From NCBI GenBank assembly GCA_963924565.1, contig OZ004615.1:8122001-8186000 (forward strand): a stretch of 64,000 nt of DNA. Direction: 5' to 3'. Source of the DNA: Ascidiella aspersa (Eukaryota). This document shows positions 1 to 55,900 of the stretch, piece after piece. Numbering within the stretch: position 1 is the stretch's first letter; every line of letters begins with the position of its first letter. Under the pieces are notes generated by a model that was not told the origin of the DNA, ran no database searches, and was given only the letters and a program-made list of their open reading frames with translations. The position numbers and the translations under genes were made by a program.

Positions 1-331
1 CCGACATCAAGTTAGAAATGATTTCTCTTCCGGCGATTTCAGACTGTACAACACTGTAGCCCATAAGTTTTAAATTTCGCTCGATAGCACAGACATAGTC
101 GAAATCATCAGGATGTCCAATCAAAGCAATATCCCCATCCGGGATGCCAGACGATGACACAGTTGAAGCTGTGTAGTAAGCTTGTGTATTATTTACATTA
201 TCCAGTGAAGATGTGCGTGTTGGTAAAAAAAATTTAAAGGAGCACATAATCAAATTAAATACCAATATATTGTTAAAGTAAAAGGATTATAAGTATAAAA
301 TCACCGAGATACCTGTAGAAGCAGCTTCCAT
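1..331 (-). CDS. 5' part (exon 1 at 313-331, partial exon 2 at 1-167) of a further TIR-SAMD9-like gene copy that continues beyond the left edge
   Basis: Near-identical to 30507-30836; reads MEAAST/ASTVSSSGIPDGDIALIGHPDDFDYVCAIERNLKLMGYSVVQSEIAGREIISNLMS with the same splice sites. Confidence 0.75.
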
Positions 332-10764: not shown

Positions 10765-11388
10765 CTACAACACACCGAATAGTCAAGAAAAACTTTGTTT
10801 TGGTTCAAATTTGCGAGGTATGTTTGTTACCCTCCTAATCTTGGTTTAGATTTGGTTTCCTACTTTTTATAAGCGACAACGTCTTATTATTTGCGAAAAA
10901 GTGTGTTGTGCAGCCATTTTTAATGTTTAAACAGGGTGTGGCCAAATAAAAAATACCTAAAAGACAAGAAATACTAGTTTAGTTAAAAATTGAAGTTAAA
11001 GTAATGTCATCTAAGTAAGGAAGAGGGATGAATGTCGTAAAAATAATTTTTGCGTTATCGCGGTCGACAGACAATTGGTTTTCAAAAGACTGGATGAAGT
11101 TCTTTTACAAGATTGTGTGCAACAACTTATCAAAATAGTTAAAATCACATTTGTTTCGCCAAAAGGTTCATTTAGAACAGGGGTTCTAAAACTGGGGTCC
11201 ATAGACCCCTTGGGGAACGTGAGCTCGTTTTAAGGGTCCATGAATGCCCAATTAAAAGACTAGTGTATATTTAGAAGTAATCAAACTTTCAAAGAAAAAG
11301 TTTAATAAAACTAAAACATTCTTGCACTGAATGTATTCAGACTTCATTTCACTTTCACATTTTTTGGACCGAAACTGCAGATTTTCAC

Positions 11389-11611
11389 CAGGATGTCCAA
11401 TCAAAGCAATATCCCCATCCGGGATGCCAGACGATGACACAGTTGAAGCTGTGTAGTAAACTTGTGTATTATTTACATTATCCAGTGAAGATGTGCGTGT
11501 TGGTAAAAAAAATTTAAAGGAGCACATAATCAAATTAAATACCAATATATTGTTAAAGTAAAAGGATTAAAAGTATAAAATCACCGAGATACCTGTAGAA
11601 GCAGCTTCCAT
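11389..11611 (-). pseudogene. Truncated TIR-SAMD9 copy: exon 1 (11593-11611) and first ~60 nt of exon 2, cut at a rearrangement junction
   Basis: Identity with 109-331 ends abruptly after DIALIGHP at ~11389; sequence further left is unrelated. Confidence 0.85.
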
Positions 11612-14600
11612 TTTCCACTATAAGCTTTCAATAACCATTTACTCTCAATATTATGTTTTCTGTAATAATAGATGAAAATATTGTCACTTACTTCGCCGAG
11701 CTATAATAATTAAAGATAAACTGTGTTAAATTAAATTATATCCTATAAATACCTACGCAACCTAACTGTAGAAGCTCTATATTCGTAGTAGGCTATACAT
11801 ATTTGCTTAACTCGCTAGCCTTTATTATTGAAAAACAAAACACACAGTGCTTTGAGTAAAAAGTCTTTCAAAATCAATTAAAAACTTGGAAAATGTATTT
11901 AGGTTTTTGTACAGGTTTCAAACCTATAGAAATAAATATAGCCTATAGTTTCTATAATTGCACTAAATTTCTAGTCTTTAATGAGCTAGACTACCACAGC
12001 AAAAGGTTAATTTTTCTATATATCTTTGATCTTATAAATGAAAAGAGCAATAAACGCGTCACATTTTTCTCTGGGCCCGGAAGCCGTTGTAGGCTTCTTA
12101 ATCAAAAAGCAAATTACGTTTGTTGCAAAGTTTACCAACGAAATTTCTGTGTTGAACTCGCTTTTGTCTCTCTTGTTTAATTATTTTGTTGTGGATAATA
12201 ATGTCCTAAAAATATCTAGGTTTACCTAGTTTCATGACTAAACATACAACTAATTTTCGGCAGTTTTGCGCGAGCATTCTAAACGGACAAACCTTTGGCG
12301 GTAAAATCACACAAAAGTTGTTTCTGGCCACTGTTTCATTTCATTGTGTTTTAGCAAAACATGCTTCTGCGCTTGTTTTTGTAAAGGCTTAACTGGCAGT
12401 TTCTGGTACAGCCTGTACTAACAGCCTAAAATTTATAATAATTAACCGTAGTTATGGAAAGTAAACTCCGCCGACCGGGGAATAACCTACGAGAATTTCC
12501 CCATGGTGGTGTTTTGAGCAGAATTAGAAATATTCACTGGGGTTTGCAACCATGGTAGCATTCTAGATCAGGAAACGAAATGTTTTATACTTTGCGCTGT
12601 TGTTCAAATGTTGCCAAAAAAATCTAAAACTCAAATTTGTCTTGCTGCTGCTAGAGCTTACCTAACTAAACCTACGCAACACAGAACAACAGACGATTCA
12701 TTTGCTCACACATCCACTGCAAACAAATACACATATACCTACACACAACGCTATATCTGATACTGGCTATTGTTCATATACTTCAAAAATATTTCGCAAT
12801 TCTGTAGATTACACTTCAATAGCAGAGTTGTGTATTACGCGAAGCATATGCAAACATACGACAGGTAAGTTATATATCCAGACTATATGGTAACATTACA
12901 ACAGGTAAGTTATATATCCAGACTGTATGCTAAACATTTTGGCGACATTCGGATTCTAAATTATTCGCAATGGTTATACAACGATTCGGAACTTTGGTGG
13001 AAACTTTTCCACAAATATTGCACTTTCGCTCTGACGTCGCTTCTGGTAAAACAAGACCGGTAACGCAATTTACAAGCATTCGTGACAAGGGCGACGAGTT
13101 TATGGTACATGTGCAAAGCGGACAGACGATTACAGATGGGCAAAACTAAAACTAAAAACGGTTCGGCGTGGTCGGTAGAAGAGAGCTGATTTCGTTTCTG
13201 ATCATTCAGCAGGCACGACCACCTTCTCTGCCGCTGCCTTTTCACAGGTGGTGTCTTTGCAGGTGCAAGACAAGATGGTTAACTGACTGTGCTTTCTTGG
13301 CGTGGCGTCGTCGCAAACCATCTCGTAGTTCCTCGACGCGGTGAAGGCCGGTTTGCAGCACTTGCACTTCCCTAGGGACAAACAGCGACAAAATTAGGTA
13401 GTTGTAGAAAGCTGTGCTTTTCTTCGGGGCAGCGCCTCGAGAAACTAGTGCTTTCTAGGGTATTTTTACCGCGGTTTTGTCTTTATACAGCCTTAGAGAG
13501 CAACAGGGCCCGCAGGCTAACCTTTTAGCGATTTTGTCTAATTTTACCACTTGGACTAGCGAACCCTTAAGTTATAGCTTTAGTTTACCAACAACGTTAC
13601 CAGTGTCTCTATAGGTTTTAAACAAACAAACAAATAGAAAAAATAAACGTTTAGATAAGCCGTTTTCAAACTGGGGTCCGCAGACCAAATGGAGTCCGTA
13701 CAACAGTTTCAGAGGGTCCGCAAGGAGAACAACTCTTTAAGGTTTTCAACATTAGGCTTTGGCGAATTTTGTAAACACTAGTCTATGTTTTAAACATGAT
13801 CTGTCATCATTATCCTCTTTAGTTATGCTTTATTATTCGATCATGTGGAGTGTTTTATGATGTCTCTTGTGACATCATAAAGCAACTATTATACTCTACT
13901 ATACCTGATGTCAGCGAATCGTTCGCCTTAGTTAGAAAGTTGTTACATTGGAAAGAATCGTCACTACACTAGTGTACAACAAGAAACATGGGTCAAATGA
14001 CCCTTGAACTTTTATAGGGCGGCGAAATATCAAAGTAATTGCAAAGGGTCCGCCAGGCAAATTTTCTGGAAAAGTTTAAGAACCGCTGGTTAAGATAACC
14101 CTCGTATCTACCATTATTCTATCACTCCTGTTTCGTGCCAGCTTAGTTGGTAGTTTGAATAATGACAACGAATTGACTGCGCTTGTTATCCCCAAACCAT
14201 GCACTGTAGCCAAAGAAGAGATTTTTACCTGCTATGAGACCCGACGTAGGGTTGATGTGCTGTGTGGTAGGGCACGATCTCGAGCAGTAGTTGATGTCGT
14301 AGGCCTTGTTTGTCCAGCAGCGGTGACCTTCGACGGTAGCATTGAGAATTACGTTCCGAGTGCCGACTGCGCACGGGTAGGGCGACTCTTCACCTTTAAA
14401 ATGGAAAGTAAAGTTTTAGTCTTGCTTTTATGCAGATGTTTCGTCGTTCACATAAACATCGTACAAACGCTGGGTAGCCCGAACTGGCCAAATTTGTCGT
14501 GCTCCGCGCAAATATAAATTGTATTTCTGGTGTGTCTTATCCTTTTAGATAAAATTGTTTTAGCATAAAAGTGTCCTGCGTCCTATAGCACTCTAAAAAT

Positions 14601-15436: not shown

Positions 15437-16881
15437 CACCCGATTCGATTTGTTTTCAACGCTTGTAGCGTTCGTATTAGGATAATTCGGGGCTTTGAAG
15501 CGTCTGTGTTAGATTATGTGTTAGAAATTAGACGCTTTAAGCGTAGTGTTTTAGAACAGGATACAGGCGAACAGCGAATGCGCAGACTAATCATGCATAA
15601 CGAAACGTTGCCAAGCGATGCAAACTACAGATTTTTTATCTTGAACAGTTTTGGAAATTAGAAATGCAGAAATGTTTATTGTTTATAACTGTACCAAGTT
15701 AATGCGATGTTTATAATTTTGGCGGTGGTCTAGAATCTTACCACAATAACTAAATCAACGCACAGTATTTGGATTAGGGTGCTAGTTAGCGTTTGGATTT
15801 GGGTGGGTCAAGTATGGCGCTCTTTCACTATTGTACGTCAAAATTAATAAAAAAATTTTTTTCTTCAAATGTCGCATACCACAACACATATTGTTTGGGT
15901 TAGGGTGCGGGTTTGCGTTTGGTTGAGGGTGGGTCAAGTTATTATTAATAATAAACATAATATTACTTGACCCACCCTCACCCAAACGCTAACCCGCACC
16001 CTAATCCAAACAATATGCGTTGTGGTATGCGGTATTATTATTATTTTTTTTTTGCATAACTTTTCACGTACAATAGTGAAAGAGCGCCTCAAGTATTAGT
16101 ATTAAATAAAGAATATTATAATACTTCACCCACCCACACCCAAACGCTAACTCGCACCCTAACTCAAATTTTGTGCCTTGATTTCATAACTGTGGTAGGA
16201 TTCTAGACCAGCGCCGAAAGCAGACCAGAGATACACTTTTTCGTGCTGGTCTAAAGTCCTACCACAACGCGCATTATTTCGGTTAGGGTTTAAAATGAAT
16301 ATAAGAATACTTGACCCACCCACACCCAAACACTAACTCTCGCCGCCACTAACCCTAATATTGTGCGTTGATTTAATAATGTGGTAGGATTCTAGACCAG
16401 CGCCCTTTTTTAACTTTGTTGCACCTGCATCCGCGTGTTCTGTTATACTTTCCAGGCTGGGGTAAGGGTGGTTCAAGTATTATCATTAATAGTATTGCTT
16501 AACCTATACCCAAACCGAAACGCTAACCCGCACCCTAACCCAAATAATGTTCGCTAAGGTAGGCTTCAGCAACAATAAAAGCTTTTATCTGCTATTTACT
16601 GGGTAAAATTATAAACATCGCATTAACTTGGTACAGTTATAAACATTTCTGCATTTCTAATATCCAAAACTGTACAAGATAAAAAATCTGTAGTTTGCAT
16701 CGCTTGGCAACGTTTCGTTATGCATGATTAGTCTGCGCATTCGCTGTTCGCCTGTATCCTGTTCTAAAACACTACGCTTAAAGCGTCTAATTTCTAACAC
16801 ATATTCTAACACAGACGCTTCAAAGCCCCGAATTATCCTAATACGAACGCTACAAGCGTTGAAAACAAATCGAATCGGGTG
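15437..16881. mobile_element. Non-autonomous foldback-type DNA transposon with ~285-bp terminal inverted repeats (P/Galileo-like TSD length)
   Basis: Ends CACCCGATTCG...CGAATCGGGTG; 7-bp TSD TCGATGC (15430-15436, 16882-16888); empty site at ~52430-52436. Confidence 0.88.
15816..16088. mobile_element. Palindromic MITE (Merlin-like, GG...CC ends) nested in a related MITE (15721-16215) inside the foldback element
   Basis: Ends GGCGCTCTTTCACTATTGTACG...CGTACAATAGTGAAAGAGCGCC; 8-bp TSD TCAAGTAT (15808-15815, 16089-16096). Confidence 0.8.
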
Positions 16882-22313: not shown

Positions 22314-22516
22314 ATGGTTGGAGGTTGTAGTAAGACGTAATAAGAATATCAAAGCCCATACAGAAGTGGGTATCATTTTGGACGTTTCGAATAACTCTTT
22401 ATTCATTTTCAACATCATATTTCAAGATATTTTTCAAGATGTTGAAAATGAATAAAGAGTTATTCGAAACGTCCAAAATGATACCTACTTCTGTATGGGC
22501 TTTGAAATTCTTATTA
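22314..22516. mobile_element. Short hairpin insertion, Penelope-like retroelement footprint
   Basis: 13-bp TSD AGTTTCAAGCAAA (22301-22313, 22517-22529); ~79-bp inverted arms 22338-22416 and 22438-22516; empty site at 40271-40283. Confidence 0.7.
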
Positions 22517-24840: not shown

Positions 24841-27800
24841 CTAGCTAATAACATACGCACAATACTGACATTTGAAAGAGATGTTTTGCTGATTAAGAGT
24901 CAGCCTTTCGCTTTTTCGATTGCACGAAGGACATTCGACTTTCTCGATCAACCGGACGCAGTGAGCCTCTGCTGCGTTAAAGGTGTCAAAAGCTACGTGG
25001 AATTCAACACGGCACCCCGATTTGCCTTGCATCTGATACCTTTTCGGAGTGAAATAAATGTATAACTTTTGTTGAAATTTCAGATCCAATAATATTAATC
25101 CAAAGATTGGATGGTTTGCCTTTTTAACGGTGCCTGTGCAAACTTGAAGTTGTTGCACAGCCTGAGTATTTGCCCAAGTTTTTTGCGTTTCATTCCACTC
25201 TCCTAATTGTTGTCTTTGAATAAATTTTTTAATGGTGTTTGATTTTTCATTGGTAAGAAATTCCAAACGTCTTCCTTTAACAAATGTTTGCGAGCGCATC
25301 TTTTGGCGTAACGTTTCAATTAGTTCAATATCATCGTTGTTTGGTTTATCAGAAGATACTACAATTGCAAATTTGATCGCGTACAGGTAAAGATCGGCAT
25401 AACCACGCTCGTTACGACTTCTCCAATCTGTCACAAATCGAAATACCACCTCTTGTAAGTTGTAACATTTTTCTGACAAAGCTGGATGACGAATATACTG
25501 GAGCCAGTTGTACATATCAAGATTGACAGAGACATCAATTGGGTGGGAATAAATGGTGGACAACAAATTTTCGTACATAGTGACAACATCCCTTCGACTC
25601 TGATTTTTATCAATGTAACCAACTGTTTCGTTTCCTTCTATTGCCCTTCTGGTATTTCGTAATTGATTGCGAACAAGGGGGATATTACGATGAATATTTT
25701 CAATTTCAAACAACTGAACCCTGTCATCTTTAAAATATAATTTGTAAGATATGAGTGCCTCTTGATATTTTGATTTGGCAAGTTCCTGTTTCCTTGATTT
25801 TAGCTTGCATTCTTCCAAAAGATCACCACATATGAAGTTCGAATTTCTGATAAACTCAGCAAGTCTGGGATAGGTTTCATTTAGTTTTTCGACATTAGAG
25901 CAGCCACCATGTCGCTTATCCACATACTCAGCAAAACGAAGTCGAAGCTTTATTTCGCCCATATAACCAAAAGAAAAATTGTCAATTGCCATTTGTCTGG
26001 ATTTGTGAAAATGGGAAATCGAAAGTTCGGCTTGGTCAAGGGCACTTTCTATATTTTCGTTACCTCCGTTTAGAAGTTGACTAGCATGTCTAGAACAACA
26101 ATTTGCAAACATGTTGTGAAATTGACAGGATTTTTGCAAAGTTGGATTGTGCTTTTCAAGGTCAAGTGCCTTTAATAGGTAAGTTTCTGCGCGTTGAAAG
26201 TCGCCAAACGCAGTGCACACTCTTCCGGCATGTCCATTGTAATCTGAATTATCGGGAAATGCGTCGACCAGAGCTACCATTACTTTTATTTTATTATCAT
26301 TTTCTGGAATATCATTTATAAGTGGAGCAAAGTTTACTTTCGCCTTATCGTCTGGTGTAGATTCACGCCGGATTAGCAGTAAATAAATGGAATGTCCAAT
26401 TCCCGACCAAGGTTGATTTCGACCACAAATCTGTTTAAAAATTTCAATCAGATCGATCACATGGGTGTGAAGAGATTGGCGAACGGATGGCAACAATGGG
26501 GCATAAAACGGTTCAGCCACCCTTTGATCATATTCGCTAGAGGGAGAAAGTGCCAACTGCAATATTTCTCTAGCCACCATTGGATACGATATTGTCCATT
26601 CATGTTCGTTTTCGATAAAAAATTGATAGGCTCTGTAAGGAAGGTCGGTCATTTTTACGAATTTCATCGAATTAGGGTGAAGGAAAGCCCTGAACGCATT
26701 CCTGCTGATTCCAGTCTGTCCGTAATAATCCAGAAGTGAAAGGTAGACCAAAATACGTTGCCACTTTGATAGTTCAGCTTTTTTACAAAAAAATCCCGTA
26801 ACGTAGCTCCTAATGCCGGTGTACTCCTCATTAAACGCGTACAAACCAAATTCGAACATTTGTGGGGCATCATATTTTTGATCAGCGCGAAGTTGAAGCT
26901 CTGCCATTTTACAAGAACCGTTTGAAACAAAATTGTTCAAAATTGTTATCAGACGTGAAGCTTCGTCCGAAGATGTCGATTCACTAAGGCTTAGTGAATC
27001 AGATTTTAAATCACTTCTGTTTTCGATTAGGTCCGACTTTCGTTCAACAAGTAGCACCACGAGTTCGATGTGTTGTTTCGCTTGATCGACGATGTTCTTC
27101 TTATCGACGCCGTCAAGTAAGATGAGCAACGGCAACCTGGTCTTTTCATACAGAATTTTTAGATTTTTTACAAGATCAGCCGTGGTAGGATAGGGTGGTT
27201 TAACTTCAATACATGGAATAACTTGTCGCAAAGACCACAGTATTTGTCGTGCGAGAGTGCTACCCCCACTTCCTGGAGTATGAATCAGCCTTAATATTTT
27301 TGGCTTCCATTCTTGATTAATCTCTTGTTTTATCTTTTCACACGCTTCATTTTCAATATCTCTTTTTATAGCAACATTACCCCTTGCAATGTGATCCCAT
27401 GTTGCTACACCACCTTTGTGAAATGACTCTTCTTTGGTTTTGCGTAACCTCTCATCGCTAACTTCTTCTGTTATGTTTATTTCCGTTGACAAAATATCCA
27501 TATAAGAAGGAAATTCTTTGGTTTTGATTTTGATTTTCTTTAATTCATCGTTAGAGGTCTTTCCAGGGACGGTCACGACTCCATACAATCCTGTATTTAA
27601 CATGGTTGGTCCAACCTTTTCAAAACAGAGACTAACTTCATAAGGTGAAATTTGCACACACGTAGAATCTAGTTTATACTTGCTCAGTGTTGTAAACAAG
27701 TGTGAGTCAGATTTAGGCGTTTCGGGAACGCAAAAAATCAGTTTAACGGGAAAAGTCTTTATATTCCCAATGGTGAATTGTTTTCGAATTAACTGTAATA

Positions 27801-28616
27801 ATCGATCAAGAATGTAGCATGAAATGGAATCTGTTTTGTACCAGAGCAAAACAAAGCATGCCGTTTTGTCTGGACAACAATACTGAGCTGCTTTGGTCAC
27901 AACTGTTTCCAAAGCGGTATCGTATTTATCTTCCCAATCCGAGTAATCTGTGACGCACTTATTGGTTATCGCAAGCCAATTGGTTTTGTCAGCTTCTAAA
28001 TCATCGACGTAGTCATCCACATTTCTTCGCGACACCTCTTTTTGCCTGAAATCTAATGAGTCAAACAGACACTCATCCTCATCTTGACAGTCCAAGTCGA
28101 ACACCTGTATCCACGGAATTGCTGATATTCCGCCTAACTTGTTGTTTGGTACGCTAGTTGTGACTAGAAAGTATGCTTGACTGCCATCGACTTTGTCAAA
28201 CATTTTTAAAATCGAAAACATCGAATCTTTATTGGTAGATGCAGATGAAGGCAATTTATCTTTTATCCAAGTTTCGTTTTGTCGTTGTGTGGTAGCTATT
28301 TCGCTTCTATGGCGCAGTGCATCACGAACTCTTGTCATCCAGCTCGGATGAATAAGAGCCCCTTCACGTTTTATTTTAATCATAGTATTATCAACAATGT
28401 GAATATAGTCACTTGAATCAACAAATGAACTAAAATCTCCCAGATTTAAAGCATCAAAACTACCGAATCGTGCTTCATATTGTGATTTTGTGTCATCTAG
28501 ACACTTCCGTGCCAGTTGTGAATCTTCCTTGGGATTAACGATGCTGCTGATTAGAAGATTAGCACAGAAAGCTCTTCTTTCTCTTTGGGTGTTTAAGCTT
28601 TCTATATCTGAAATAC
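24841..28616 (-). CDS. Single 3.8-kb last exon encoding the SAMD9-like core (copy 1)
   Basis: 1262-aa uninterrupted ORF; acceptor ttgcatacag|GT (alternative in-phase acceptor 9 nt downstream). Confidence 0.92.
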
Positions 28617-30836
28617 CTGTATGCAACAAGTTGGATATTAATAAAACATATTTTTCCGAATTTTCAATGCCGGTGACCCTGATTTAGTTTAGGTAGAAAT
28701 AAAAGTATAGTAAACAAGACCAAAAACTGAAAAGTACAAAGACAAGATGTATCTAGATGGTAGGTTAATTGGTTGCATTTCAGTTTAGTTTAAATTACTT
28801 TATTTTTTCAACTGAATGAATTTATGCAGATAAAAACGGAAATGTTTTGCTTGGGGGCAATACATTTGTCTGATTTGCCAACAATTACCGATTTATATGT
28901 GAATTAACTTTCTGAGCGATACGGCCTTTCCTTTTTGCCTGCCTGTCGTGGTGCAAGTTTTAATGCTGTTTTTGTGTAAAAGAACGAGTATTTTAGGTGA
29001 GTTGCGTTGTGTATTGTATGGTTTTGCCAGCCCTGATAATCTGACAATGTGCAAAATGTAACCTTTGCCAAATTTACTACGATGACACATTGGTCAGTTC
29101 GCCCAGCATTAACGACCTTTTGTATAAAACGTCTTGTAGTAATAATAACACTGCTTTTTTTTTGCACTACCTTGCTTTGTAAATTATTAAAGCGTAGTTT
29201 ATATCACGCCTTCTTACCTACACTTATGCGTGTGACATCATAATGATGCATTGGTAATTAAATTGCTTAAATTACGCGAATTTCTCCTGATTCTCCCGGT
29301 TCCCCAAATAGTTAGAACGTTATTATCATGCCAAATACATTTCCCGGAAACATGTAAAGCGACCTACATTTTTTGTTTTTAAAATATGTATAATAAAGAG
29401 GCAGGTCTACGTAGTCGGAGTCTGAACTCTAGCACGACAACATCAGACCAACCGAGTCCAAAGTCCAACGTGAAAATGCTTACCAAATTTGTAACCGATA
29501 AGGTACAAACTATAAATCGTAGGAGTAAAATACCATATAGTTAAAATAATATTCTAACTACTATTGTGGGTGTATTAGATTTATTACACGCATATGAGTA
29601 GATTGCTGTACATCCGCCCTATTTAAGTTACGTAAATGGGTGAAATACAGGCTGTCGACACAGGACTCAGGAGTCAAAGAAATTGGGGAATTGGCCAGGA
29701 TCGGATTTGAGAGTGGTACTACAGTTTATTTTTTCAGGCGGAGTTGGATTGTTTTCAACCTACTCCGCAGCCCTATTGGTCAGTAACAACTAACAAGAAC
29801 AATAAATTGCTTAAAAATTCTGCACGACACTCATGACCGCATTACAGAGAAAACCTAAAAGAGTTGTTGGGCAGTACGCAGCCGAACCAAATAAATAAGG
29901 AGCGTTACAATAATTTACAGTGGCGTTAACAACACTTCTGTATTTCTATAAATAGAAAATATTTTATAACTGACCTATTTCTTTTAACGCTTCGGTAAAC
30001 TGCGCAATTCTTTCTGCGGTTTCTTCAGCTGAGCATCCTGCTTTTATGTGAAACCCGCCTCGAAATTCTGAACTGGATGGTTTACTTTTGTCGCTTTCGT
30101 AAATGAGAAGATACAAATCTTTCAGCAACAACTTGGATTGATACAATGGCTCACAGAATTTATGAAACTGTTTGCATGTATTGTCCGTGAGCACCAAAAT
30201 ACTGAAAGGTAAAAATTGACATGTTCGATAGCACAGGTTAAGTTTTCTTAGCTTACACAGAAAAATTAGAAATTAATCGATTAAAACATTTAATACACGT
30301 TATAACTTCGGAAAGGATTACTAAAATCAGTCGGCCAAATCAGGATTTTCGTGCAAGTAAGTCCAGGCTAGAAAAACTCATTTAAAGGGGATCAACAGTT
30401 CGTTTTCAGCAACTGAAACATTAATTTTTTTCTTTCGGTAATCCTTTCGTAGGCTTTATTTGCAGAAATAAAAGGCTTACCTAGATAATAATGCATGGTG
30501 AACGCCCGACATCAAGTTAGAAATGATTTCTCTTCCGGCGATTTCGAACTGTACAACACTGTAGCCCATAAGTTTTAAATTTCGCTCGATAGCACAGACA
30601 TAGTCCAAATCATCAGGATGTCCAATCAAAGCAATATCCCCATCCGAGATGCCAGACGATGACACAGTTGAAGCTGTGTAGTAAGCTTGTGTATTATTTA
30701 CATTATCCAGTGAAGATGTGCGTGTTGGTAAAAAAAATTTAAAGGAGCACATAATCAAATTAAATACCAATATATTGTTAAAGTAAAAGGATTAAAAGTA
30801 TAAAATCACCGAGATACCTGTAGAAGCAGCTTCCAT
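24841..30836 (-). CDS. SAMD9L-like: TIR-domain SAMD9/SAMD9L-like STAND NTPase, intact copy, ~1404 aa (TIR - possible LOTUS-like - SIR2-like - P-loop NTPase - TPR - OB-fold - Zn ribbon)
   Basis: Exons 30818-30836, 30481-30673, 29975-30201 and 24841-28616 join in frame (phases 1, 2, 1). SAMD9 hallmarks: YFLVT...IPWIQVFDLD, F..GG..W, lysine-less Walker A HTPGSGGSTLARQILWSLR, Walker B LLILLD, TPR-like GDFQRAETYLLKAL, OB-like terminal VEFHVAF. Confidence 0.85.
29975..30673 (-). CDS. Two exons encoding a TIR-like domain (copy 1)
   Basis: DIALIGHPDDLDYVCAIERNLKLMGYSV (bA-aA-bB), AGREIISNLMSGV (BB loop-aB), SILVLTDN (bC), KFCE (aC), LYLLIYE (bD), FHIK...EETAERIAQF (bE-aE). Confidence 0.65.
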
Positions 30837-42542: not shown

Positions 42543-45500
42543 CTAGCTAATAACATACGCACAATACTGACATTTGAAGGAGATGTTTTGCTGATTAAGA
42601 GTCAGCCTTTCGCTTTTTCGATTGCACGAAGGACATTCGACTTTCTCGATCAACCGGACGCAGTGAGCCTCTGCTGCGTTAAAGGTGTGAAAAGCTACGT
42701 GGAACTCAACACGGCACCCCGATTTGCCTTGCATCTGATACCTTTTCGGAGTGAAATAAAGGTATATCTTTTGTTGAAATTTCAGATCCAATAATATTAA
42801 TCCAAAGAGTGGATGGTTTGCCTTTTTAACGGTGCCTGTGCAAACTTGAAGTTGTTGCACAGCGTGAGTATTTGCCCAAGTTTTTTGCGTTTCATTCCAC
42901 TCTCCTAATTGTTGTCTTTGAATAAATTTTTTAATGGTGTTTGATTTTTCATTGGTAAGAAATTCCAAACGTCTTCCTTTAACAAATGTTTTCGAGCGCA
43001 TCGTTTGGCGTAACGTTTCAATTAGTTCAATATCATCGTTGTTTGGTTTATCAGAAGATATTACAATTGCAAATTTGATCGCGTACAAGTAAAGATCGGC
43101 ATAACCACGCTCGTTACGACTTCTCCAATCTGTCACAAATCGAAAGACCACCTCTTGTAAGTTGTAACATTTTTCTGACAAAGCTGGATGACGAATATAC
43201 TGGAGCCAGTTGTACATATCAAGATTGACAGAGACATCAATATGGTGGGAATAAATGGTGGACAACAAATTTTCGTACATAGTGACAACATCCCTTCGAC
43301 TCTGATTTTTATCAATGCAACCAACTGTTTCGTTTCCTTCTATTGCCCTTTTGGTATTTCGTAATTGATTGCGAACAAGGGGGATATATCGATGAATATT
43401 TTCAATTTCAAACAACTGAACCCTGTCATCTTTAAAATAGAAATTGTAAGACATGAGTGCATCTTGATATTTTGATTTGGCAAGTTCCTGTTTCCTTGAT
43501 TTTAGCTTGCATTCTTCCAAAAGATCACCACATATGAAGTTCGAATTTCTGATAAACTCAGCAAGTCTGGGATAGGTTTCATTTAGTTTTTCGACATTAG
43601 AGCAGCCACCATGTCGCTTATCCACATACTCAGCAAAACGAAGTCGAAGCTTTATTTCGCCCATATAACCAAAAGAAAAATTGTCAATTGCCATTTGTCT
43701 GGATTTGTGAAAATGGGAAATCGAATGTTCGGCTTGGTCAAGGGCACTTTCTACATTTTCGTTACCTCCGTTTAGAAGTTGACTAGCATGTCTAAAACAA
43801 CAATTTGCAAACATGTTGTGAAATCGACAGGATTTTTGCAAAGTTGGATTGTGCTTTTCAAGGTCAAGTGCCTTTAATAGGTAAGTTTCTGCGCGTTGAA
43901 AGTCGCCAAACGCAGTGCACACTCTTCCGGCATGTCCATTGTAATCTGAATTATCGGGAAATGCGTCGACCAGAGCTACCATTACTTTTATTTTATTATC
44001 ATTTTCTGGAATATCATTTATAAGTGGAGCAAAGTTTACTTTCGCCTTATCGTCTGGTGTAGATTCACGCCGGATTAGCAGTGAATAAATGGAATGTCCA
44101 ATTCCCGACCAAGGTTGATTTCGACCACAAATCTGTTTAAGAATTTTAATCAGATCGATCACATGGGTGTGAAGAGAGTGGCGAACGGATGGCAACAATT
44201 GAGCATAAATCGGTTTAGCCACCGTTCGATCATATTCGCTAGAGGGAGAAAGTGCCAACTGCAATATTTCTCTAGCCACCAGTGGATACGATATTGTCCA
44301 TTCATGTTCGTTTTCGATAAAAAATTGATAGGCTCTGTAAGGAAGGTCGGTCATTTTTACGAATTTCATCGAATTAGGGTGAAGGAAAGCCCTGAACGCA
44401 TTCCTGCTGATTCCTGTCTGTCCGTAATAATCCAGAAGTGAAAGGTAGACCAAAATACGTTGCCACTTTGATAGTTCAGCTTTTTTACAAAAAAATCCCG
44501 TAACGTAGCTCCTAATGCCGGTGTACTCCTCATTAAACGCGCACAAACCAAATTCGAACATTTGTGGGGCATCATATTTTTGATCAGCGCGAAGTTGAAG
44601 CTCTGCCATTTTACAAGAACCGTTTGAAACAAAATTGTTCAAAATTGTTATCAGACGTGAAGCTTCGTCCGAAGATGTCGATTCACTAAGGCTTAGTGAA
44701 TCAGATTTTAAATCACTTCTGTTTTCGATTAGGTCCGACTTTCGTTCAACAAGTAGCACCACGAGTTCGATGTGTTGTTTCGCTTGATCGACGATGTTCT
44801 TCTTATCGACGCCGTCAAGTAAGATGAGCAACGGCAACCTGGTCTTTTCATACAGAATTTTTAGATTTTTTACAAGATCAGCCGTGGTAGGATAGGGTGG
44901 TTTAACCTCAATACATGGAATAACTTGTCGCAAAGACCACAGTATTTGTCGTGCGAGAGTGCTACCCCCACTTCCTGGAGTATGAATCAGCCTTAATATT
45001 TTTGGCTTCCATTCTTGATTAATCTGTTGTTTTATCTTTTTACACGCTTCATTTTCAATATCTCTTTTTATAGCAACATTACCCTTTGCAATGTGATCCC
45101 ATATTGCTACACCACCTTTGTGAAATGACTCTTCTTTGGTTTTGCGTAACCTCTCATCGCTAACTTCTTCTGTTATGTTTATTTCCGTTGACAAAATATC
45201 CATATAAGAAGGAAATTCTTTAGTTTTGATTTTGATTTTCTTTAATTCATCGTTAGAGGTCTTTCCAGGGACGGTCACGACTCCATACAATCCTGTATTT
45301 AACATGGTTGGTCCAACCTTTTCAAAACAGAGACTAACTTCAGAAGGTGAAATTTGCACACACGTAGAATCTAGTTTATACTTGCTCACTGTTGTAAACA
45401 AGTGTGAGCCAGATTTAGGCGTTTCGGGAACGCAAAAAATCAGTTTAACGGGAAAAGTCTTTATATTCCCAATTGTGAATTGTTTTCGAATTAACTGTAA

Positions 45501-45923
45501 TAATCGATCAAGAATGTAGCAAGAAATGGAATCTGTTTTGTACCAGAGCAAAACAAAGCATGCCGTTTTGTCTGGACAACAATACTGAGCTGCTTTGGTC
45601 ACAACTGTTTCCAAAGCGGTATCGTATTTATCTTCCCAATGCGAGTAATCTGTAACGTCCTTATCGGTTATCGCAAGCCAATTGGTTTTGTCAGCTTCTA
45701 AATCATCAACGTAGTCATCCACATTTCTTCGCGACACCTCTTTTTGCCTGAAATCTAATGAGCCAAACAGACACTCATCCTCATCTTGACAGTCCAAGTC
45801 GAACACCTGTATCCACGGAATTGCTGATATTCCGCCTAACTTGTTGTTTGGTACGCTAGTTGTGACTAGAAAGTATGCTTGACTGCCATCGACTTTGTCA
45901 AACATTTTTAAAATCGAAAACAT
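42543..45923 (-). CDS. SAMD9L-like: SAMD9-like STAND NTPase core, copy 2 (1126-aa open frame, disconnected from its TIR exons)
   Basis: About 96% identical to copy 1 (about 42 substitutions counted by eye); no internal stops; starts at the in-frame ATG of MFSILK. Confidence 0.75.
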   Translation of the reverse strand: MFSILKMFDKVDGSQAYFLVTTSVPNNKLGGISAIPWIQVFDLDCQDEDECLFGSLDFRQKEVSRRNVDDYVDDLEADKTNWLAITDKDVTDYSHWEDKYDTALETVVTKAAQYCCPDKTACFVLLWYKTDSISCYILDRLLQLIRKQFTIGNIKTFPVKLIFCVPETPKSGSHLFTTVSKYKLDSTCVQISPSEVSLCFEKVGPTMLNTGLYGVVTVPGKTSNDELKKIKIKTKEFPSYMDILSTEINITEEVSDERLRKTKEESFHKGGVAIWDHIAKGNVAIKRDIENEACKKIKQQINQEWKPKILRLIHTPGSGGSTLARQILWSLRQVIPCIEVKPPYPTTADLVKNLKILYEKTRLPLLILLDGVDKKNIVDQAKQHIELVVLLVERKSDLIENRSDLKSDSLSLSESTSSDEASRLITILNNFVSNGSCKMAELQLRADQKYDAPQMFEFGLCAFNEEYTGIRSYVTGFFCKKAELSKWQRILVYLSLLDYYGQTGISRNAFRAFLHPNSMKFVKMTDLPYRAYQFFIENEHEWTISYPLVAREILQLALSPSSEYDRTVAKPIYAQLLPSVRHSLHTHVIDLIKILKQICGRNQPWSGIGHSIYSLLIRRESTPDDKAKVNFAPLINDIPENDNKIKVMVALVDAFPDNSDYNGHAGRVCTAFGDFQRAETYLLKALDLEKHNPTLQKSCRFHNMFANCCFRHASQLLNGGNENVESALDQAEHSISHFHKSRQMAIDNFSFGYMGEIKLRLRFAEYVDKRHGGCSNVEKLNETYPRLAEFIRNSNFICGDLLEECKLKSRKQELAKSKYQDALMSYNFYFKDDRVQLFEIENIHRYIPLVRNQLRNTKRAIEGNETVGCIDKNQSRRDVVTMYENLLSTIYSHHIDVSVNLDMYNWLQYIRHPALSEKCYNLQEVVFRFVTDWRSRNERGYADLYLYAIKFAIVISSDKPNNDDIELIETLRQTMRSKTFVKGRRLEFLTNEKSNTIKKFIQRQQLGEWNETQKTWANTHAVQQLQVCTGTVKKANHPLFGLILLDLKFQQKIYLYFTPKRYQMQGKSGCRVEFHVAFHTFNAAEAHCVRLIEKVECPSCNRKSERLTLNQQNISFKCQYCAYVIS

Positions 45924-45997
45924 CGAATCTTTATTGGTAGATGCAGATGAAGGCAGTTTATCTTTTATCCAAGTTTCGTTTTGTCGTTGTGTGGTAG

Positions 45998-48342
45998 CTA
46001 TTTTCCCAGTTGTGAATCTTCCTTGGGATTAACGATGCTGCTGATTAGAAGATTAGCACAGAAAGCTCTTCTTTCTCTTTGGGTGTTTAAGCTTTCTATA
46101 TCTGAAATACCTGTATGCAACAAGTTGGATATTAATAAAACATATTTTTCCGAATTTTCAATACCGGTGACCCTGATTTAGTTTACGTAGAAATAAAAGT
46201 ATAGTAAACAAGACCAAAAACTGAAAAGTACAAAGACAAGATGTATCTAGATGGTAGGTTAATTGGTTGCATTTCAGTTTAGTTTAAATTACTTTATTTT
46301 TTCAACTGAATGAATTTATGCAGATAAAAACGGAAATGTTTTGTTTGGGGGCAATACATTTGTTACATCTGATTTGCCAACAATTACCGATTTATATGTG
46401 AATTAACTTTCTGCGCGATACGGCCTTTCCTTTTTTCCTGCCTGTCGTGGTGCAAGTTTTAATGCTGTTTTTGTGTAAAAGAACGAGTATTTTAGGTGAG
46501 TTGCGTTGTTTATTGTATGGTTTTGCCAGCCCTGATAATCTGACAATGTGCAAAATGTAATCTTTGCCAAATTTACTACGATGACACATTGGTCAGTTCG
46601 CCCAGCATTAACGGCCTTTTGTATAAAACGTCTTGTAGTAATAATAACACTGCTTTTGTTTTGCACTAACTTGCTTTGTAAATTATTAAAGCGTAGTATA
46701 TATCACGCCTTCTTACCTACACTTATGCGTGTGACATCATAATGATGCATTGGTAATTAAATTGCTTAAATTACGCGAATTTCTCCTGATTCTCCCGGTT
46801 CCCCAAATAGTTAGAACGTTATTATCATGCCAAATACATTTCCCGGAAACATGTAAAGCGACCTACATTTTTTGTTTTTAAAATATGTATAATAAAGAGG
46901 CAGGTCTACGTAGTCGGAGTCTGAACTCTAGCACGACAACATCAGACCAACCGAGTCCAAAGTCCAACGTGAAAATGCTTACCAAATTTGTAACCGATAA
47001 GGTACAAACTATAAATCGTAGGAGTAAAATACCATATAGTTAAAATAATATTCTAACTACTATTGTGGGTGTATTAGATTTATTACACGCATATGAGTAG
47101 ATTGCTGTACATCCGCCCTATTTAAGTTACGTAAATGGGTGAAATACAGGCTGTCGACACAGGACTCAGGAGTCAAAGAAATTGGGGAATTGGCCAGGAT
47201 CGGATTTGAGAGTGGGACTACAGTTTATTTTTTCAGGCGGAGTTGGATTGTTTTCAACCTACTCCGCAGCCCTGCTGGTCAGTAACAACTAACAAGAACA
47301 ATAAATTGCTTAAAAATTCTGCACGACACTCATGACCGCATTACAGAGAAAACCTAAAAGAGTTGTTGGGCAGTACGCAGCCGAACCAAATAAATAAGGA
47401 GCGTTACAATAATTTACAGTGGCGTTAACAACACTTCTGTATTTCTATAAATAGAAAATATTTTATAACTGACCTATTTCTTTTAACGCTTCGGCAAACT
47501 GCGCAATTCTTTCTGCGGTTTCTTCAGCTGAGCATCCTGCTTTTATGTGAAACCCGCCTCGAAATTCTGAACTGGATGGTTTACTTTTGTCGCTTTCGTA
47601 AATGAGAAGATACAAATCTTTCAGCAACAACTTGGATTGATACAATGGCTCACAGAATTTATGAAACTGTTTGCATGTATTGTCCGTGAGCACCAAAATA
47701 CTGAAAGGTAAAAATTGACATGTTCGATAGCACAGGTTAAGTTTTCTTAGCTTACACAGAAAAATTACAAAGAAATTAATCGATTAAAAAATTATATAAT
47801 ACACGTTATAACTTCGGAAAGGATTACTAAAATCAGTCGGCCAAATCAGGATTTTCGTGCAAGTAAGTCCAGGCTAGAAAAACTCATTTAAAGGGGATCA
47901 ACAGTTCGTTTTCAGCAACTGAAACATTAATTTTTTTCTTTCGGTAATCCTTTCGTAGGCTTTATTTGCAGAAATAAAACGCTTACCTAGTTAATAATGC
48001 ATGGTGAACGCCCGACATCAAGTTAGAAATGATTTCTCTTCCGGCGATTTCGAACTGTACAACACTGTAGCCCATAAGTTTTAAATTGCGCTCGATAGCA
48101 CAGACATAGTCCAAATCATCAGGATGTCCAATCAAAGCAATATCCCCATCCGAGATGCCAGACGATGACACAGTTGAAGCTGTGTAGTAAGCTTGTGTAT
48201 TATTTACATTATCCAGTGAAGATGTGCGTGTTGGTAAAAAAAATTTAAAGGAGCACATAATCAAATTAAATACCAATATATTGTTAAAGTAAAAGGATTA
48301 AAAGTATAAAATCACCGAGATACCTGTAGAAGCAGCTTCCAT
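45998..48342 (-). CDS. Copy 2 N-terminal part: predicted 183-aa TIR-only product ended by a frameshift (or a pseudogene)
   Basis: Exons 48324-48342, 47987-48179, 47474-47700 and 45998-46110. The 210 nt at 28302-28511 of copy 1 are replaced by 2 nt, giving ...KEDSQLGK-TAG (stop at 45998-46000). Confidence 0.7.
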
Positions 48343-49919
48343 TTTCCACTATAAGCTTTCAATAACCATTTACTCACAATATTATGTTTTCTGTAATAAT
48401 AGATGAAAATATTGTCACTTACTTCGCCGAGCTATGATAATTAAAGATAAACTATGTTAAATTAAATTATATCCTATAAATAACTACGCAACCTAACTGT
48501 AGAAGCTCTTTATTCGTAGTATACCTATTTGCTTAACTCGCTAGCCTTTATAACTGAAAAACAAAACACACAGTGCTTTGAGTGAAAAAGTCTCTTAAAA
48601 TCAAATAAAAAATTGGTTGCACTAAATTTCTAGTCTTTAATGAGCTAGACCACCACAGCAAAAGGTTAATTTTTCTATATAGCTTTGATCTTATAAATGC
48701 AAAGAGCAATAATGCGTCACATTTTTTCTCTGGGCCCTGGGAGCAGCTGTAGGCTTCTTAACCAAAAAAGAAATTACTTTTGTTGCAAAGTTATCCAACG
48801 AAATTGCTGTGTTAAACTCGCTTTTGGCCCTCTGGTATAATTATTTTGTTCTGGATAATAATATCCTAAAAATATCCAGGTGGACCAAGTTTCATGGTTT
48901 CTCGAATCTTGTGCGCTCGCCACCCGCCCACTACATTAGTAACTTCAAAGAGACATCGGAAATCGTGACTAGACATACAACTAATTTTCGACAGTTTTGC
49001 GCGAGCATTCTTTAATCGGACAAACCTTTGGCGGTAAAATCACGCACAAGTTGTTACTGGCCACTGTTTTATTTGATTTTGTTTCAGCAAAACCTATGCT
49101 CCTGCGCTTGTTTTTGTAAAGGCTTAACTGGCAGTTTTTGGTACAGCCTGTACTAACAGCTCAAAGTTTATATTAATTAACTAGTGAAGGAAAGTAAACT
49201 CCGACGTACGGGAAATAACCTACGAGAATTTCCCCATGGTGGTGTTTTGAGCAGACTTAGAAATATTCACTGGGGTTTGCAACAACGGTAGCATTCTATA
49301 TCAGGAAACCAAATCTTTTATACTTTGCGCTGTTGTTTAAATGTTGCCAAAAAAATCTAAACCTAATCTATGTTTTGCTGCTGCTAGAGCTTATCTAACT
49401 AAATCTACGCAACACAGAACAACAGTCGATTCATTTGCCTACACATACACATATACCGACACACAACGCTATATCTGATACTGGCTATTGTTCATATACT
49501 TTAAAAATATTTCGCAATTCTGTAGATTACACTTCAATAGCAGAGTTGTGTATTACGCGAAGCATATGCAAACATACGACAGGTAAGTTATATATCCAGA
49601 CTATATGTTAACATTACAACAGGTAAGTTATATATCCAGACTGTATGCTAAACATTTTGGCGACATTTGGATTCTAAATTATTCGCAATGGTTATACAAC
49701 GATTCGGAACTTTGGTGGAAACTTTTACACAAATATTGCACTTTCGCTCTGACGTCGCTTCTGGTAAAACAAGACCGGTAACGCAATTTACAAGCATTCG
49801 TGACAAGGGCGACGAGTTTATGGTACATGTGCAAAGCGGACAGACGATTACAGATGGGCAAAACTAAAACTAAAAACGGTTCGGCGTGGTCGGTAGAAGA
49901 GAGCTGCTTTCGTTTCTGA

Positions 49920-52900: not shown

Positions 52901-55900
52901 TTCACTAAGGGCGTTGGTACGTACGCGCCTCAAACCGATCGCACAGGTTACATTCCACTGGGCGCAGACCGACTGCAGCATGGCGTTGTTCATGCATTGG
53001 CACCTGTACTTGGGACAGCATGGACCAGTCTTGCTATTGCGCTGTTCCAGCTGAAATCAAAGACAATTGTATGGTTTGGGTTTAGTTCACTAGAGGCGGC
53101 GAACATACAAGGAAGTTATTTGGTAAGTTTAACTGCAGTATATTGGCTGATGTGTTCGCCCTTAAGCCGAGTGACAAAACCCGCAATTGACATAAGCCAA
53201 ATTTAAACGTATCAATATAAGGACCCATTGCTTAAAAAAACTTGATACTTAGGGTGTTAGAAAAACAAAATCCAAGCAACTGAAGTAGTATGTTGTGTTT
53301 GCTTCCAGGCCGCGTGATAAAACACGGTATTGACATAAGCCAAATTTAAACATATCAATACGTGCATGTGGTAAAAAAAACTTGCGCCCGATGCCTTGTG
53401 CTTAATACTGTTAAGTTAAGAAAAAAATACAAAATAAGCATTTTTTTGGTTGAGAAAAAAAAATACAAAATAAGCAAAATGCGTCAAATTGTCGAAATGC
53501 GTCAATTGCAGGCACGAAAGGATTAGACCGTATACATACTTGAATAGGCCGCGTACCTGAATCCTTTCCTCGCCCAATGGGCACGTGAAGTCGTCCCACT
53601 GATCGCAGCTCGTTTTCAGGATGCTCTCGTCATCACACACGCACTTGCGCAGCGGACAGCAATCTGATGTGTTGGCCATGAAGCCGTCCATTTCCTTGTG
53701 CGTGTAGTTGCCACAGGTGGCCACTTCGTCGGGTGGGCAGAGTGCTGAAAGTCGCGCGGCGTTCTTGCACTGGCAGCGGTAGCCCGAGCAGCAGGGGTCG
53801 GTGTCAGGCACCTCCTCATAAGGGACGGCCCGCAAATACACGCTGGAACACAGCTCGTGCTCGTACTCCGTAATCGACTTGCACCGCAGCGTCGGGTCGG
53901 TCAGGTTCTTGATGACGTGGCACGACTCCATGTCACCGAGCGTGGTTCGTTCTTCACTGCACATTCGCGTCACGTTGCAGCCGCCACCGATATCCTCCTT
54001 CCAGGTGTCGTGCAGCGCGACCATGTAGCCGCTCGTCAACTCGCAAACGTCGCACCTGCACACGTGCAGCGGGCAACAGTCTCGCGTGCCTGGCATCGTC
54101 GCGTCGGTCTGTACCATTGTCGTGTTACCAGTGCAGTTAGGCTTGGGACACTTACCCGTGTCGCCGCACACGATCTTGTACTTGGGGCAGCATTTTTGCA
54201 GCGGGTTTTCGCTGGTATTTAGCGCGACATACTTCTCGTATATCGCCGGCAACCTGTCGGGCTTCTCCATGTGGTTGATAGGGCACGGTTTGCAGGTGCA
54301 ACTGTAGGTAGGACAACACAAGCCGTCGGTAAAGTTGAGCTGTTTATGCTCACTGTAGTCGCACGACAGATCCGAACCGGGACACTGCGCGTCAAGCTCG
54401 CTCCCTTTGAGACACGGACAGTGCAGTTTCTGGCAGCACTCGCCGGTCGTCACGTAGGTCATGTTTTCCCTTCCTGCCTCTTTGCACTGCACCAGCGTCA
54501 CGTTGGATTTCTCGCACACGTCCAGCAGCATTGTTGCGTTGTTACACACGCACTGAAACTCGTCGCAGCATTGATTTGTGACTGTAAGCGCCTCGGCGTG
54601 CTGGTAGCCTGCCTGACAGTAGTTCGACTCGAAGTCGGACAGCTTCGTACAGTGTTCGATCTGTTTGTAGTTGGTATCGATGACGTAGCAAGATATCTCA
54701 TCACTCTCGTCGACCCTGCGGCTGCTGCAAACTTTCGTGACAGAGCAGTGCTGCGAGTCGGTGACGTTGTAGGTTTGCCCGCGCTCCAGGCGCGTTCCAT
54801 TTGCGGTAAAGCACGAGTCGCAGCTGCAGGTGTTGTTGGCACAGCAGTCGCCTTGCGCAGCCAGGTTCCTCAGAACGTAGCCCGGGTCGCAACTGGTTAC
54901 GTTTGCCGGTTTGCAGGTTTTGCAAATGCATTTATACGATGGGCAGCAGGGGTTTGAGGCGTTTTGGCCGGCACTTTGGTCGACGGTCACCATCATGTCG
55001 GGCTTGTTACACACGTCCAGGGTCTCGTTGTAGGCCGGACAGAGGTTCGGCAGCTTGGCCATGTCGGCTCCGCAGGTGCAATTATAGTAAGGACAGCTGG
55101 TTCCGTCTGAAATCAACTTGGCCACTTCTCCTGGATGCTTGCAAGTCGGCAGCTTCTTGTCCGGGCAAACTGCGGAAGCAAATCTTATACTTTAGCTATG
55201 CAGCTGATTTTATTCCATAGCGTGTTGCTCAAACGCATGGAAAAGTTTGTTTGACAAAACAATAGTGTTTCGCAATTTTAGGACGTAGCGTAATACATTT
55301 TAAATATGACACCAGATCGAAACGACGGAACTGTGCCACATGATTTGACACAACAATCTTCTAAAATACATAATATTTTTAACAAATTCCCATTCTTGGG
55401 CAAAAAAATTGGTAAATCATCCAAATGACAGCTGTTTGGGGGCTAAAAATACTAAAAACGTGATAAGATTGTATTAATAAATACATAATTACCACAAGCA
55501 TGTTTGGGACAGCATTCCGTTGTAGAATTTACTTCAACGATTTGGTCGGGGTTGCAATTCTTGTCTTTGTATTGCTCGGCCGTTTCGCAAGTCTGGTTTA
55601 CTGTAAAGGACAAACTTAAGTTTAATGAATTTAGTAGAATTTTGCTGGAACCTGCATTTCGGATTGCTTTTAGAAGACGACAGTACGCCTAAAAGCTCTT
55701 TCCGAACAGTCATGATCAGTCCTGCACATCTCAAAATGGTAAAAGGGGCCCATCTTGACGTTGATGCAACCGTTGTATTGTATACTTTTTTGGTTGAAAG
55801 AAGAAATAAAAAAGTGTGATTTGAACAGGTCCGTTAAATTGTTTCGATGATTAGTTAATATTTAAGAGACATAGAGATAAGTCGGCAATGGTTTCACCAT

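Follow-up and report, generated by a model that had tools for sequence, protein, structure and literature searches.

Plant paired NLRs and TIR-only genes are separately transcribed and conserved, and their interdependence has been shown. Among SAMD9-family proteins the signature is a Walker A motif in which GG(T/S) replaces GK(T/S), with a His upstream, and AlbA_2 is a core SAMD9 domain that has nevertheless been lost in some members (PMC5445408). Loss of SAMD9 segregates, unfixed, in bonobos (PMC12680541). The window analysed here, a stretch of 64,000 nucleotides from Ascidiella aspersa (contig OZ004615.1, positions 8,122,001 to 8,186,000), contains a gene whose product is a SAMD9-family protein with TIR-like, winged-helix, SIR2-like, STAND, TPR and OB regions, in near-identical copies. 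One of these, copy 2, probably stems from a young tandem duplication of this immune gene, as an allele that was disabled recently and is still polymorphic.

The gene product matched human SAMD9 both by sequence (E 2.4e-7) and by predicted fold (Foldseek E 9.9e-31, about 1240 columns). A SIR2-like domain is followed by a STAND-like P-loop, as the SAMD9 family requires. The earlier note had described an intact NTPase in copy 2; the P-loop is indeed present, but it is of the lysine-less SAMD9 type, His...Gly-Gly-Ser-Thr (44958..44984, minus strand), identical in all three copies. The TPR array and the C-terminal OB were recognised as helical repeats and a beta domain in the model and from the full-length SAMD9 fold match, the Pfam TPR_7 match being weak (E 0.05). 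The core order, the lysine-less Walker A with its upstream His, and the sequence and fold matches are thus common to this protein and SAMD9/SAMD9L, as are variable N-termini and frequent duplication and loss. In contrast to SAMD9/SAMD9L, the protein has neither SAM nor the AlbA nuclease, its N-terminus is TIR-like and LOTUS-like, and its C-terminus carries two CxxC motifs. No AlbA_2 match was obtained before SIR2, where only about 25 residues separate it from the winged helix, and AlbA was present in 4 of the 26 homologues scanned. The main text of PMC5445408 contains none of the terms 'TIR', 'LOTUS', 'HTH' and 'winged', and 'TIR' and 'LOTUS' are absent from PMC12680541; a SAMD9 that lacks AlbA and begins with TIR-like and LOTUS-like regions is not named in the SAMD9 literature examined. 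The closest named homologues are ascidian, and the fused architecture occurs in the two neighbouring copies and in the Clavelina homologue P0153. A word-index search returned only two distant fish SAMD9-like proteins, and the same kind of search with the P0153 N-terminus found nothing.

The TIR identity and the catalytic competence of the N-terminus are weakly shown by sequence comparison. Pfam gave no TIR match on single exons, profiles of the winged helix and of exon 2 found nothing relevant among PDB sequences, and these exons were absent among the 22 matches of a TIR_2 search of the genome (G000). The N-terminus of P0012, a homologue and not this gene, matched TIR_2 (E 0.0067) and Atlas TIR clusters at 0.93. 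When a profile of five family N-termini was compared with eight TIR_2 matches from G000, the score was 20.3 (E 0.008, with a probability of only 5%), which exceeded 30 of 30 shuffles (best shuffle 15.9). Glu84 is at most one residue away from the TIR glutamate column, which we take to be that of the catalytic (NADase) glutamate; it is kept in P0153 and is Asn in par1. The intact protein, an AlbA-less SAMD9 whose TIR-like and LOTUS-like N-terminus is shared with an ascidian homologue, is the more durable result, and it suggests that a SAMD9 core may drive TIR output in place of tRNA cleavage.

There are three near-identical copies (0, 1 and 2), not two as had been implied earlier, with coding sequences 98-99% identical and of mosaic ancestry. 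Copy 1 (24841..30836, minus strand) is intact and encodes 1404 aa. Copy 0, equally intact at 1404 aa, lies mostly upstream of the window, with its 5' end at 1..331 (minus strand) and the remainder at G000:C9:8116290-8122000. A fourth fragment (11385..11889, minus strand) has exon 1 and the first part of exon 2 and is truncated where a 7.7-kb repeated block has its edge. Each of the three copies has distinct flanks and private changes. Their probable origin, we infer, is tandem duplication together with exchange; unequal crossover in one simple step was rejected, as the order of the mosaic tracts does not fit it.

Copy 2, on the minus strand, is modelled with four coding exons. Exon 1 (48324..48342), inferred from sequence and common to all three copies, provides 19 coding nt, the ATG included, before a GT donor. 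Exon 2 (47987..48179, with AG/GT ends) encodes the first half of the TIR-like domain and aligns with P0153 and P0012, and exon 3 (47474..47700), with a pyrimidine-rich acceptor, encodes the second half. In the alignment with P0153 the spliced model runs through the exon junction without sizeable insertion, and it replaced an alternative model using a weak exon-3 acceptor (198 aa). Exon 4 begins at 46110, and its part up to a premature TAG at 46000-45998 (45998..46110) encodes the first winged-helix helix and Gly-Lys. Comparison with copy 1 confirmed the net 208-bp deletion responsible: copy-1 bases 28302-28511 (28302..28511, minus strand; 210 nt) are absent, and 2 other letters stand in their place at the junction (46003..46006). 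The upstream product is 183 aa, as first reported, or 180 aa with a second exon-4 acceptor at 46101; it is not strictly TIR-only, since 34 winged-helix residues including the first helix are retained. Also confirmed was the 1126-aa ORF downstream (42543..45923, minus strand), encoding the SIR2-like, STAND P-loop, TPR/helical and OB regions and the two C-terminal CxxC motifs. It opens at 45923, the first ATG after the stop, and we counted the gap as 74 nt. Twelve open in-frame AGs were considered as frame-restoring cryptic acceptors and rejected, since none has a strong pyrimidine tract in front of it (12/18 at best). The 1 kb upstream of copy 2 is 98.7% identical to that of copy 1, and no interferon-element-like motif was found in it.

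The deleted segment had been read as a linker. It instead comprises residues 182-251, so that 70 residues are lost from a conserved winged helix, LOTUS-like and about 105 residues long; it also contains all six exon-4 AUGs before Met279. It is predicted as a folded domain (pLDDT 88.9), with fold matches to LOTUS/OST-HTH domains of MARF1, TDRD5 and Tejas (Z 7.0-7.2, rmsd 2.2-2.9), while PadR/MarR winged helices score above LOTUS (Z up to 9.5). The predicted winged-helix fold would thus be held in common with LOTUS/OST-HTH, from which the family differs in that an OST-HTH (PF12872) sequence match is lacking in 11 of 12 aligned segments; the single match came from one homologue (E 7e-5), and the window's own segment gave none. 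Searched against the Atlas, the winged helix matched ERAP1_C-like rows only, all below 0.9. The segment is kept in copies 0 and 1, in all three distant G000 paralogs and in P0153, and its deletion is confined to copy 2 among the near-identical copies. As the deletion both destroys the winged helix and shifts the frame, copy 2 is likely an ordinary broken duplicate and not a two-protein system that evolved as such.

The junction was traced in sequencing runs, and it is real and likely polymorphic. In X1, possibly the source run of the assembly, contigs reproduce the joint letter for letter (210 skipped, the same 2 letters, 30 letters on the shorter side), at a depth of 37.1 compared to 101.9 for the intact form; the deletion is therefore very probably not an assembly error. 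In X2 an intact 548-nt contig spans the site and no junction contig was found, although contigs can drop variants. X8 gave no junction reads, a weak absence given that the chance of zero is 0.10 with one dose and 0.01 with two. The junction was thus found in one of the three DNA runs examined. At five sites that set copy 2 apart from copies 0 and 1, the X1 main contigs carry the copy-2 letter even though the intact segment predominates there, and in X8 the copy-2 letter was present in 16 of 27 reads, which suggests that intact copy-2-type alleles exist. The depth in X8, about 6-9 in most bins compared to 6.3 genome-wide, suggests that this individual has fewer than three copies. The RNA run X9 contained almost no exonic reads from any of the three copies.

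The split pattern itself is explicable without selection and is not above chance for a frameshift at this place. Of the simulated frameshifting deletions ending before the Met of 45923, 1206 out of 1386 led to the same arrangement, and 21 random substitutions left the 1126-codon frame open in 37% of 4000 trials. That the frame is still open would follow from exon 4 being a single long exon and from the short time since the deletion. Over the 1126 codons pN/pS was 0.86-0.87 for all three copy pairs, and this likeness argues against a distinct constraint on copy 2. The ATG at 45923 encoded an internal Met already before the deletion and occurs in each of the three copies, in a weak context (TCG-ATG-T).

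The suggestion of a very young pseudogene is supported: a disabling lesion lies beside two intact, redundant paralogs, the junction is found in a minority of runs, and there is no sign of selection. The deletion would have struck a redundant copy, whose mRNA would terminate early and then degrade or give an unstable TIR-like stub, any downstream product being a low-level leak without a selected role. As in primate SAMD9, one duplicate is disabled while a paralog stays; the primate loss is a 41-kb deletion or several stops, whereas here a 208-bp frameshift affects a triplicated invertebrate gene. Broken copy 2 would be an ordinary case of birth and death of genes within an immune family. Some observations run counter to this explanation: the deletion falls cleanly between the TIR and the core, no second disabling change is present in copy 2, none of its 16 private amino-acid changes removes a strongly conserved residue, its splice sites are intact and its upstream 1 kb is close to that of copy 1, the 74-nt gap lies between preferred reinitiation distances, all six earlier AUGs are cleared (as in 34 of 187 comparable deletion placements), and a slippery site is created.

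The earlier note had also proposed a gene fission into a free TIR and a decoy or helper STAND made by reinitiation. In the form considered here, copy 2 would give a headless SAMD9 core beside the free TIR-like protein; the core would arise by reinitiation or else on a transcript that begins at exon 4, e.g. through spliced-leader trans-splicing, and would pair with the intact copies via SIR2/OB to damp or help signalling. In the model the core folds by itself (mean pLDDT 86.7, first helix from residue 2), human SAMD9L without SAM and AlbA folds and dimerises via its SIR2-like and OB regions (excerpt of bioRxiv 10.64898/2026.02.01.703102), exon 4 has 45923 as its first AUG once the deletion is made, and the closest named homologues belong to the ascidians, in which trans-splicing is frequent (excerpt of PMC11155486). 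However, the first ORF is long, the weak ATG is older than the deletion, a conserved domain is destroyed and the allele was present in only one of three DNA runs, while 0/3 distant paralogs are split and P0153 is fused. Trans-splicing in Ciona moreover favours the first acceptor and not the third, as far as the excerpted source goes. Functional fission appears quite unlikely. The likeness to plant paired NLRs and TIR-only genes, with TIR and STAND modules apart beside an intact receptor, is superficial: copy 2 is one transcript unit and one young allele, and the split is not conserved across individuals, paralogs or species. A segregating two-product locus, in which the free TIR-like protein and a headless core made by trans-splicing or a -1 slip would arise and the core would pair with the intact copies and retune their immune signalling, is unlikely; if true, it would show a chordate sensor/decoy pair at the moment of its origin.

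Recoding, in which a -1 slip at G_GGA_AAA_UAG would give low levels of a 1335-aa TIR-SIR2-STAND-TPR-OB protein lacking only the winged helix, we regard as very improbable. The heptamer (46001..46007, minus strand) lies directly before the stop in exact X_XXY_YYZ register with the long ORF in the -1 frame, as happened in 11 of 13,318 simulated deletions; GGGAAAA is among the slippery heptamers listed (excerpt of bioRxiv 10.1101/2021.04.23.441185), and low-level compensatory frameshifting is known (excerpt of PMC5009743). Against this, the statistic was picked after the site had been seen, no stimulatory structure was found downstream (z -0.36 and +1.08, pseudoknots being outside the model), six such heptamers lie in frame within the intact coding sequence, and the heptamer is in no other copy. 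Equally doubtful, and hardly to be expected, is that the mRNA escapes decay and the free 183-aa TIR-like domain acts alone as a constitutive signal or competitor; the entire TIR-like region, normal splice sites and the lack of an exon junction past the stop speak for it, while the product ends in an orphaned hydrophobic helix, its stop codon is followed by at least 3.6 kb of tail, and its TIR character is weakly shown, as noted above. Least probable is an artefact, whether an assembly or homopolymer error (one more A would make the deletion in-frame) or uncollapsed haplotypes. The junction does lie within a G3-A4 run and the X8 depth would agree with fewer copies, but this reading is largely refuted by the X1 contigs, and each copy has its own flanks and changes.

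How much of either product a recently disabled copy 2 would leak depends on decay and translation. The stop does lie in the last coding exon, as reported, and no exon junction follows it; the argument for escape from NMD is nevertheless not complete, since a long 3' UTR triggers decay that is independent of exon junctions (excerpt of PMC9661723), and the tail here is at least 3.6 kb. Reinitiation is favoured where the stop is near the first AUG (PMC10275272), within about 150 nt (excerpt of PMC9661723). The first ORF of copy 2, at 183 codons, is too long by this measure, and reinitiation after it is disfavoured. Like copy 2, ATRX R37X and beta-globin exon 1 have an in-frame AUG shortly after the stop (PMC9661723, in part, and PMC10275272), but their stops are close to the first AUG. 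Published preferred stop-to-AUG distances are 39-42 and 79-140 nt, and the 74-nt gap falls between them. A UGGGA 8 nt before the stop, presumably a TURBS-like motif, was considered and rejected, as TURBS needs about 20-30 nt between stop and start, not 74. If the split allele does give a headless core, it would offer a natural test of the SAMD9 core as a dominant-negative or helper subunit. Usable slippery sites arose in 194 of the 13,318 simulated deletions, a feature noticed after the fact. Two leak routes may lead to the 1126-aa frame, an exon-4-start transcript read from its first AUG and the -1 slip at the junction, both of which the earlier note had overlooked.

The window holds two near-identical SAMD9-like genes on the minus strand, at 24841-30836 (copy 1) and 42543-48342 (copy 2), and the 5' end of a third (copy 0), whose full span in the own genome assembly is G000:C9:8116290-8122331. 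When the junction region was used as a DNA query against that genome, three places were found, all on contig G000:C9, and a protein search gave three further, distant paralogs (31-37% identity). When exon 3 is taken to start at a pyrimidine-rich acceptor, copies 0 and 1 have a 1404-aa product, and a stop ends that of copy 2 at 183 aa. The exon model is a predicted one, drawn from splice signals and from the fused Clavelina homologue P0153, which aligns across the junctions of the spliced model (E 7e-27, residues 5-250). The copies are mosaic: copy 2 clusters with copy 1 5' of ~45800 (48 sites vs 8) and with copy 0 in 44000-45799 (24 vs 2; Fisher p 8e-12, comparing window 44000-48342), the switch point lying 130-240 bp from the deletion in copy 2. 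Copy 0 carries M704I (numbered in the 1126-aa core, at G000:C9 ~8118000) at a column with Met in 66 of 71 homologues.

In copy 2, 210 nt of the copy 0 and copy 1 sequence are missing and two other letters stand in their place (net −208). The first ATG past the stop, at 45923 and 74 nt downstream, opens 1126 codons. Sequence comparison and the exon model reproduced the figures of the earlier note, i.e. a net 208-bp deletion, a 183-aa product and a downstream 1126-aa ORF. Four runs were mapped to copy 1 (DNA X1, X2 and X8, the last from a separate study, and RNA X9). X1 contigs with a depth of 37.1 join 28301 to 28512, skipping 210 letters, beside an intact contig of depth 101.9 (junction share 0.27); the joint's shorter arm is just 30 letters long, and the assembly may itself derive from X1. 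The deletion is present in primary data, A-run length included, and an artefact is hardly credible, since the joint in the X1 contigs has copy 2's two letters as well. X2 gave no junction contig, and an intact contig spans the site. Among the X8 reads, which are shallow, none shows the junction (with one dose a count of 0 has a chance of 0.10, with two doses 0.01). This zero is not decisive for X8, because depth there dips over the deleted interval (2.6 vs 5.7 and 6.6). At five copy-2-private sites the copy-2 letter was found in the main X1 contigs and in 16 of 27 X8 reads, and not in the X2 contigs. From this we infer that some genes of the copy-2 type have the deletion and others do not, and that the number of copies is variable. 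In X9 (7.8 million records) 28 reads mapped to copy 1, 27 of them only as partial matches, with depth in 5 of 30 bins, four of which are repeats in introns; this run shows no visible expression of any copy and is hence uninformative on copy 2 by itself.

Each of the three distant paralogs has the deleted segment, residues 182-251, as do at least eight homologues from databases. A fold prediction from 12 sequences yielded a confident model of it (pLDDT 88.9), whose structure matches were almost all winged helices; LOTUS domains of TDRD5, MARF1 and Tejas reached Z 7.0-7.2, PadR-type proteins scored higher, and Pfam OST-HTH matched one of the 12 segments (E 7e-5). The segment is a domain, not a linker. 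As copy 2 retains only its first helix, dangling on the 183-aa product, the locus consists of TIR plus stub, a lost domain and the core (SIR2-like, STAND, TPR, OB), and the gene fission suggested earlier is not a clean one.

We regard copy 2 as a real feature and, with good confidence, as a young disabled duplicate allele, the most likely reading and close to the "very young pseudogene" that had been offered as one option. The split arrangement is explicable without selection. The ATG at 45923 has a weak context and corresponds to Met279 of the intact protein; all three copies have it. In simulations restricted to frameshifting deletions ending before Met279, 1206 of 1386 left an ORF of at least 1000 codons at the first post-stop ATG, and with the 21 private changes of copy 2 scattered randomly the frame was open in 37% of 4000 trials. 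In the ORF at window 42543-45923 and its counterparts, pN/pS was 0.86-0.87, the same for all three copy pairs; together with the clustering of amino-acid changes between copies (core residues 566-575), this suggests relaxed or diversifying selection. On the other hand, the 16 amino-acid changes private to copy 2 all avoid strongly conserved columns, and neither its splice sites nor its upstream DNA is damaged, as expected of a very young lesion. In paired NLRs, whose parts are interdependent, the split state is conserved, which does not hold for copy 2. The split copy is closer to the unfixed SAMD9 loss in primates, as described in PMC12680541.

Functional fission into separate products is unlikely. 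The deletion clears all six earlier exon-4 AUGs (as do 34 of 187 comparable placements), so that a transcript starting in exon 4 would initiate at 45923, and the 74-nt gap is not unusual for reinitiation. However, the winged helix is lost, the ATG is inherited, and 183 codons precede the stop, whereas reinitiation is favoured with a stop close to the first AUG (PMC10275272, PMC9661723). Trans-splicing is frequent in tunicates, but in Ciona the first acceptor is preferred (PMC11155486). From the stop it is 3455 nt to the ORF end and 193 nt further to the first AATAAA; 3' UTRs >800 nt can trigger exon-junction-independent decay in human cells (PMC9661723). Rescue by recoding is less probable still. 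The junction reads G_GGA_AAA_UAG and the −1 frame is the long ORF, so that a −1 slip would produce a 1335-aa protein lacking the winged helix. GGGAAAA is a listed slippery heptamer (bioRxiv 10.1101/2021.04.23.441185) and there are known cases of corrective frameshifting at a low level (PMC5009743). A usable slippery site arose in 194 of 13318 simulated deletions and directly before the stop in 11, a statistic picked after the site was noticed; moreover, the intact gene holds six such heptamers, and no downstream structure was found after the junction heptamer. Equally improbable is that the free TIR stub is the product that matters. Should the core be produced, it could form dimers with the intact copies, by analogy with SAMD9L, which dimerises via the SIR2-like and the OB domain (bioRxiv 10.64898/2026.02.01.703102).

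Exon 4 matches human SAMD9 in sequence (E 2.4e-7), and the predicted core structure (72 sequences, mean pLDDT 86.7) matches it across the whole length (E 9.9e-31). Of the "sensor/NTPase" label the NTP-binding core stands; "NTPase" does not, as the Walker A is of the lysine-less SAMD9 type (PMC5445408) in all copies. No hydrolysis was seen with human SAMD9L (bioRxiv 10.64898/2026.02.01.703102). By the core tests the intact gene is a SAMD9 family member, except that it has no AlbA domain, a loss known within the family; its predicted operation is similar to that of SAMD9. Sequence points weakly and indirectly to a TIR-like N-terminal domain. A cluster-representative search gave 705 proteins (E <= 0.001); ten top clusters were looked up, the three named being from Clavelina and Styela, so the genes probably belong to a tunicate. 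The winged helix is present in all three distant paralogs, which are 27-34% identical to the intact gene's protein and two of which also have TIR-like exons, and homologues have DEATH, CARD, RHIM or AlbA domains swapped in. A TIR-like and LOTUS-like SAMD9 was not found among the hits listed by literature searches, nor in the main texts of PMC5445408 and PMC12680541, whose figures or supplements may show it. The interest of the locus lies mainly in this architecture and in two testable leak routes.

A candidate six-codon upstream ORF (48349-48369) stops 6 nt short of copy 2's main ATG; identical letters stand ahead of copy 1. A 7.7-kb block at 3701-11386, carrying exons of a Cys-rich neighbour gene, is repeated 75 kb off at G000:C9:8201286-8208971 (99.8% identity) and cuts a fourth exon 1-2 fragment at 11385. 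The Cys-rich, mucin- or VWF-like gene (53416-64000 and beyond, minus strand) consists of 3.6-kb units in tandem with 97-98% identity, and its 548-aa ORF had no Pfam match. Intron 3 contains a very high-copy short repeat (29620-29655, X8 depth >200), and palindromic, MITE-like elements occur at 6568-7063, 15717-16219 and 22335-22519.
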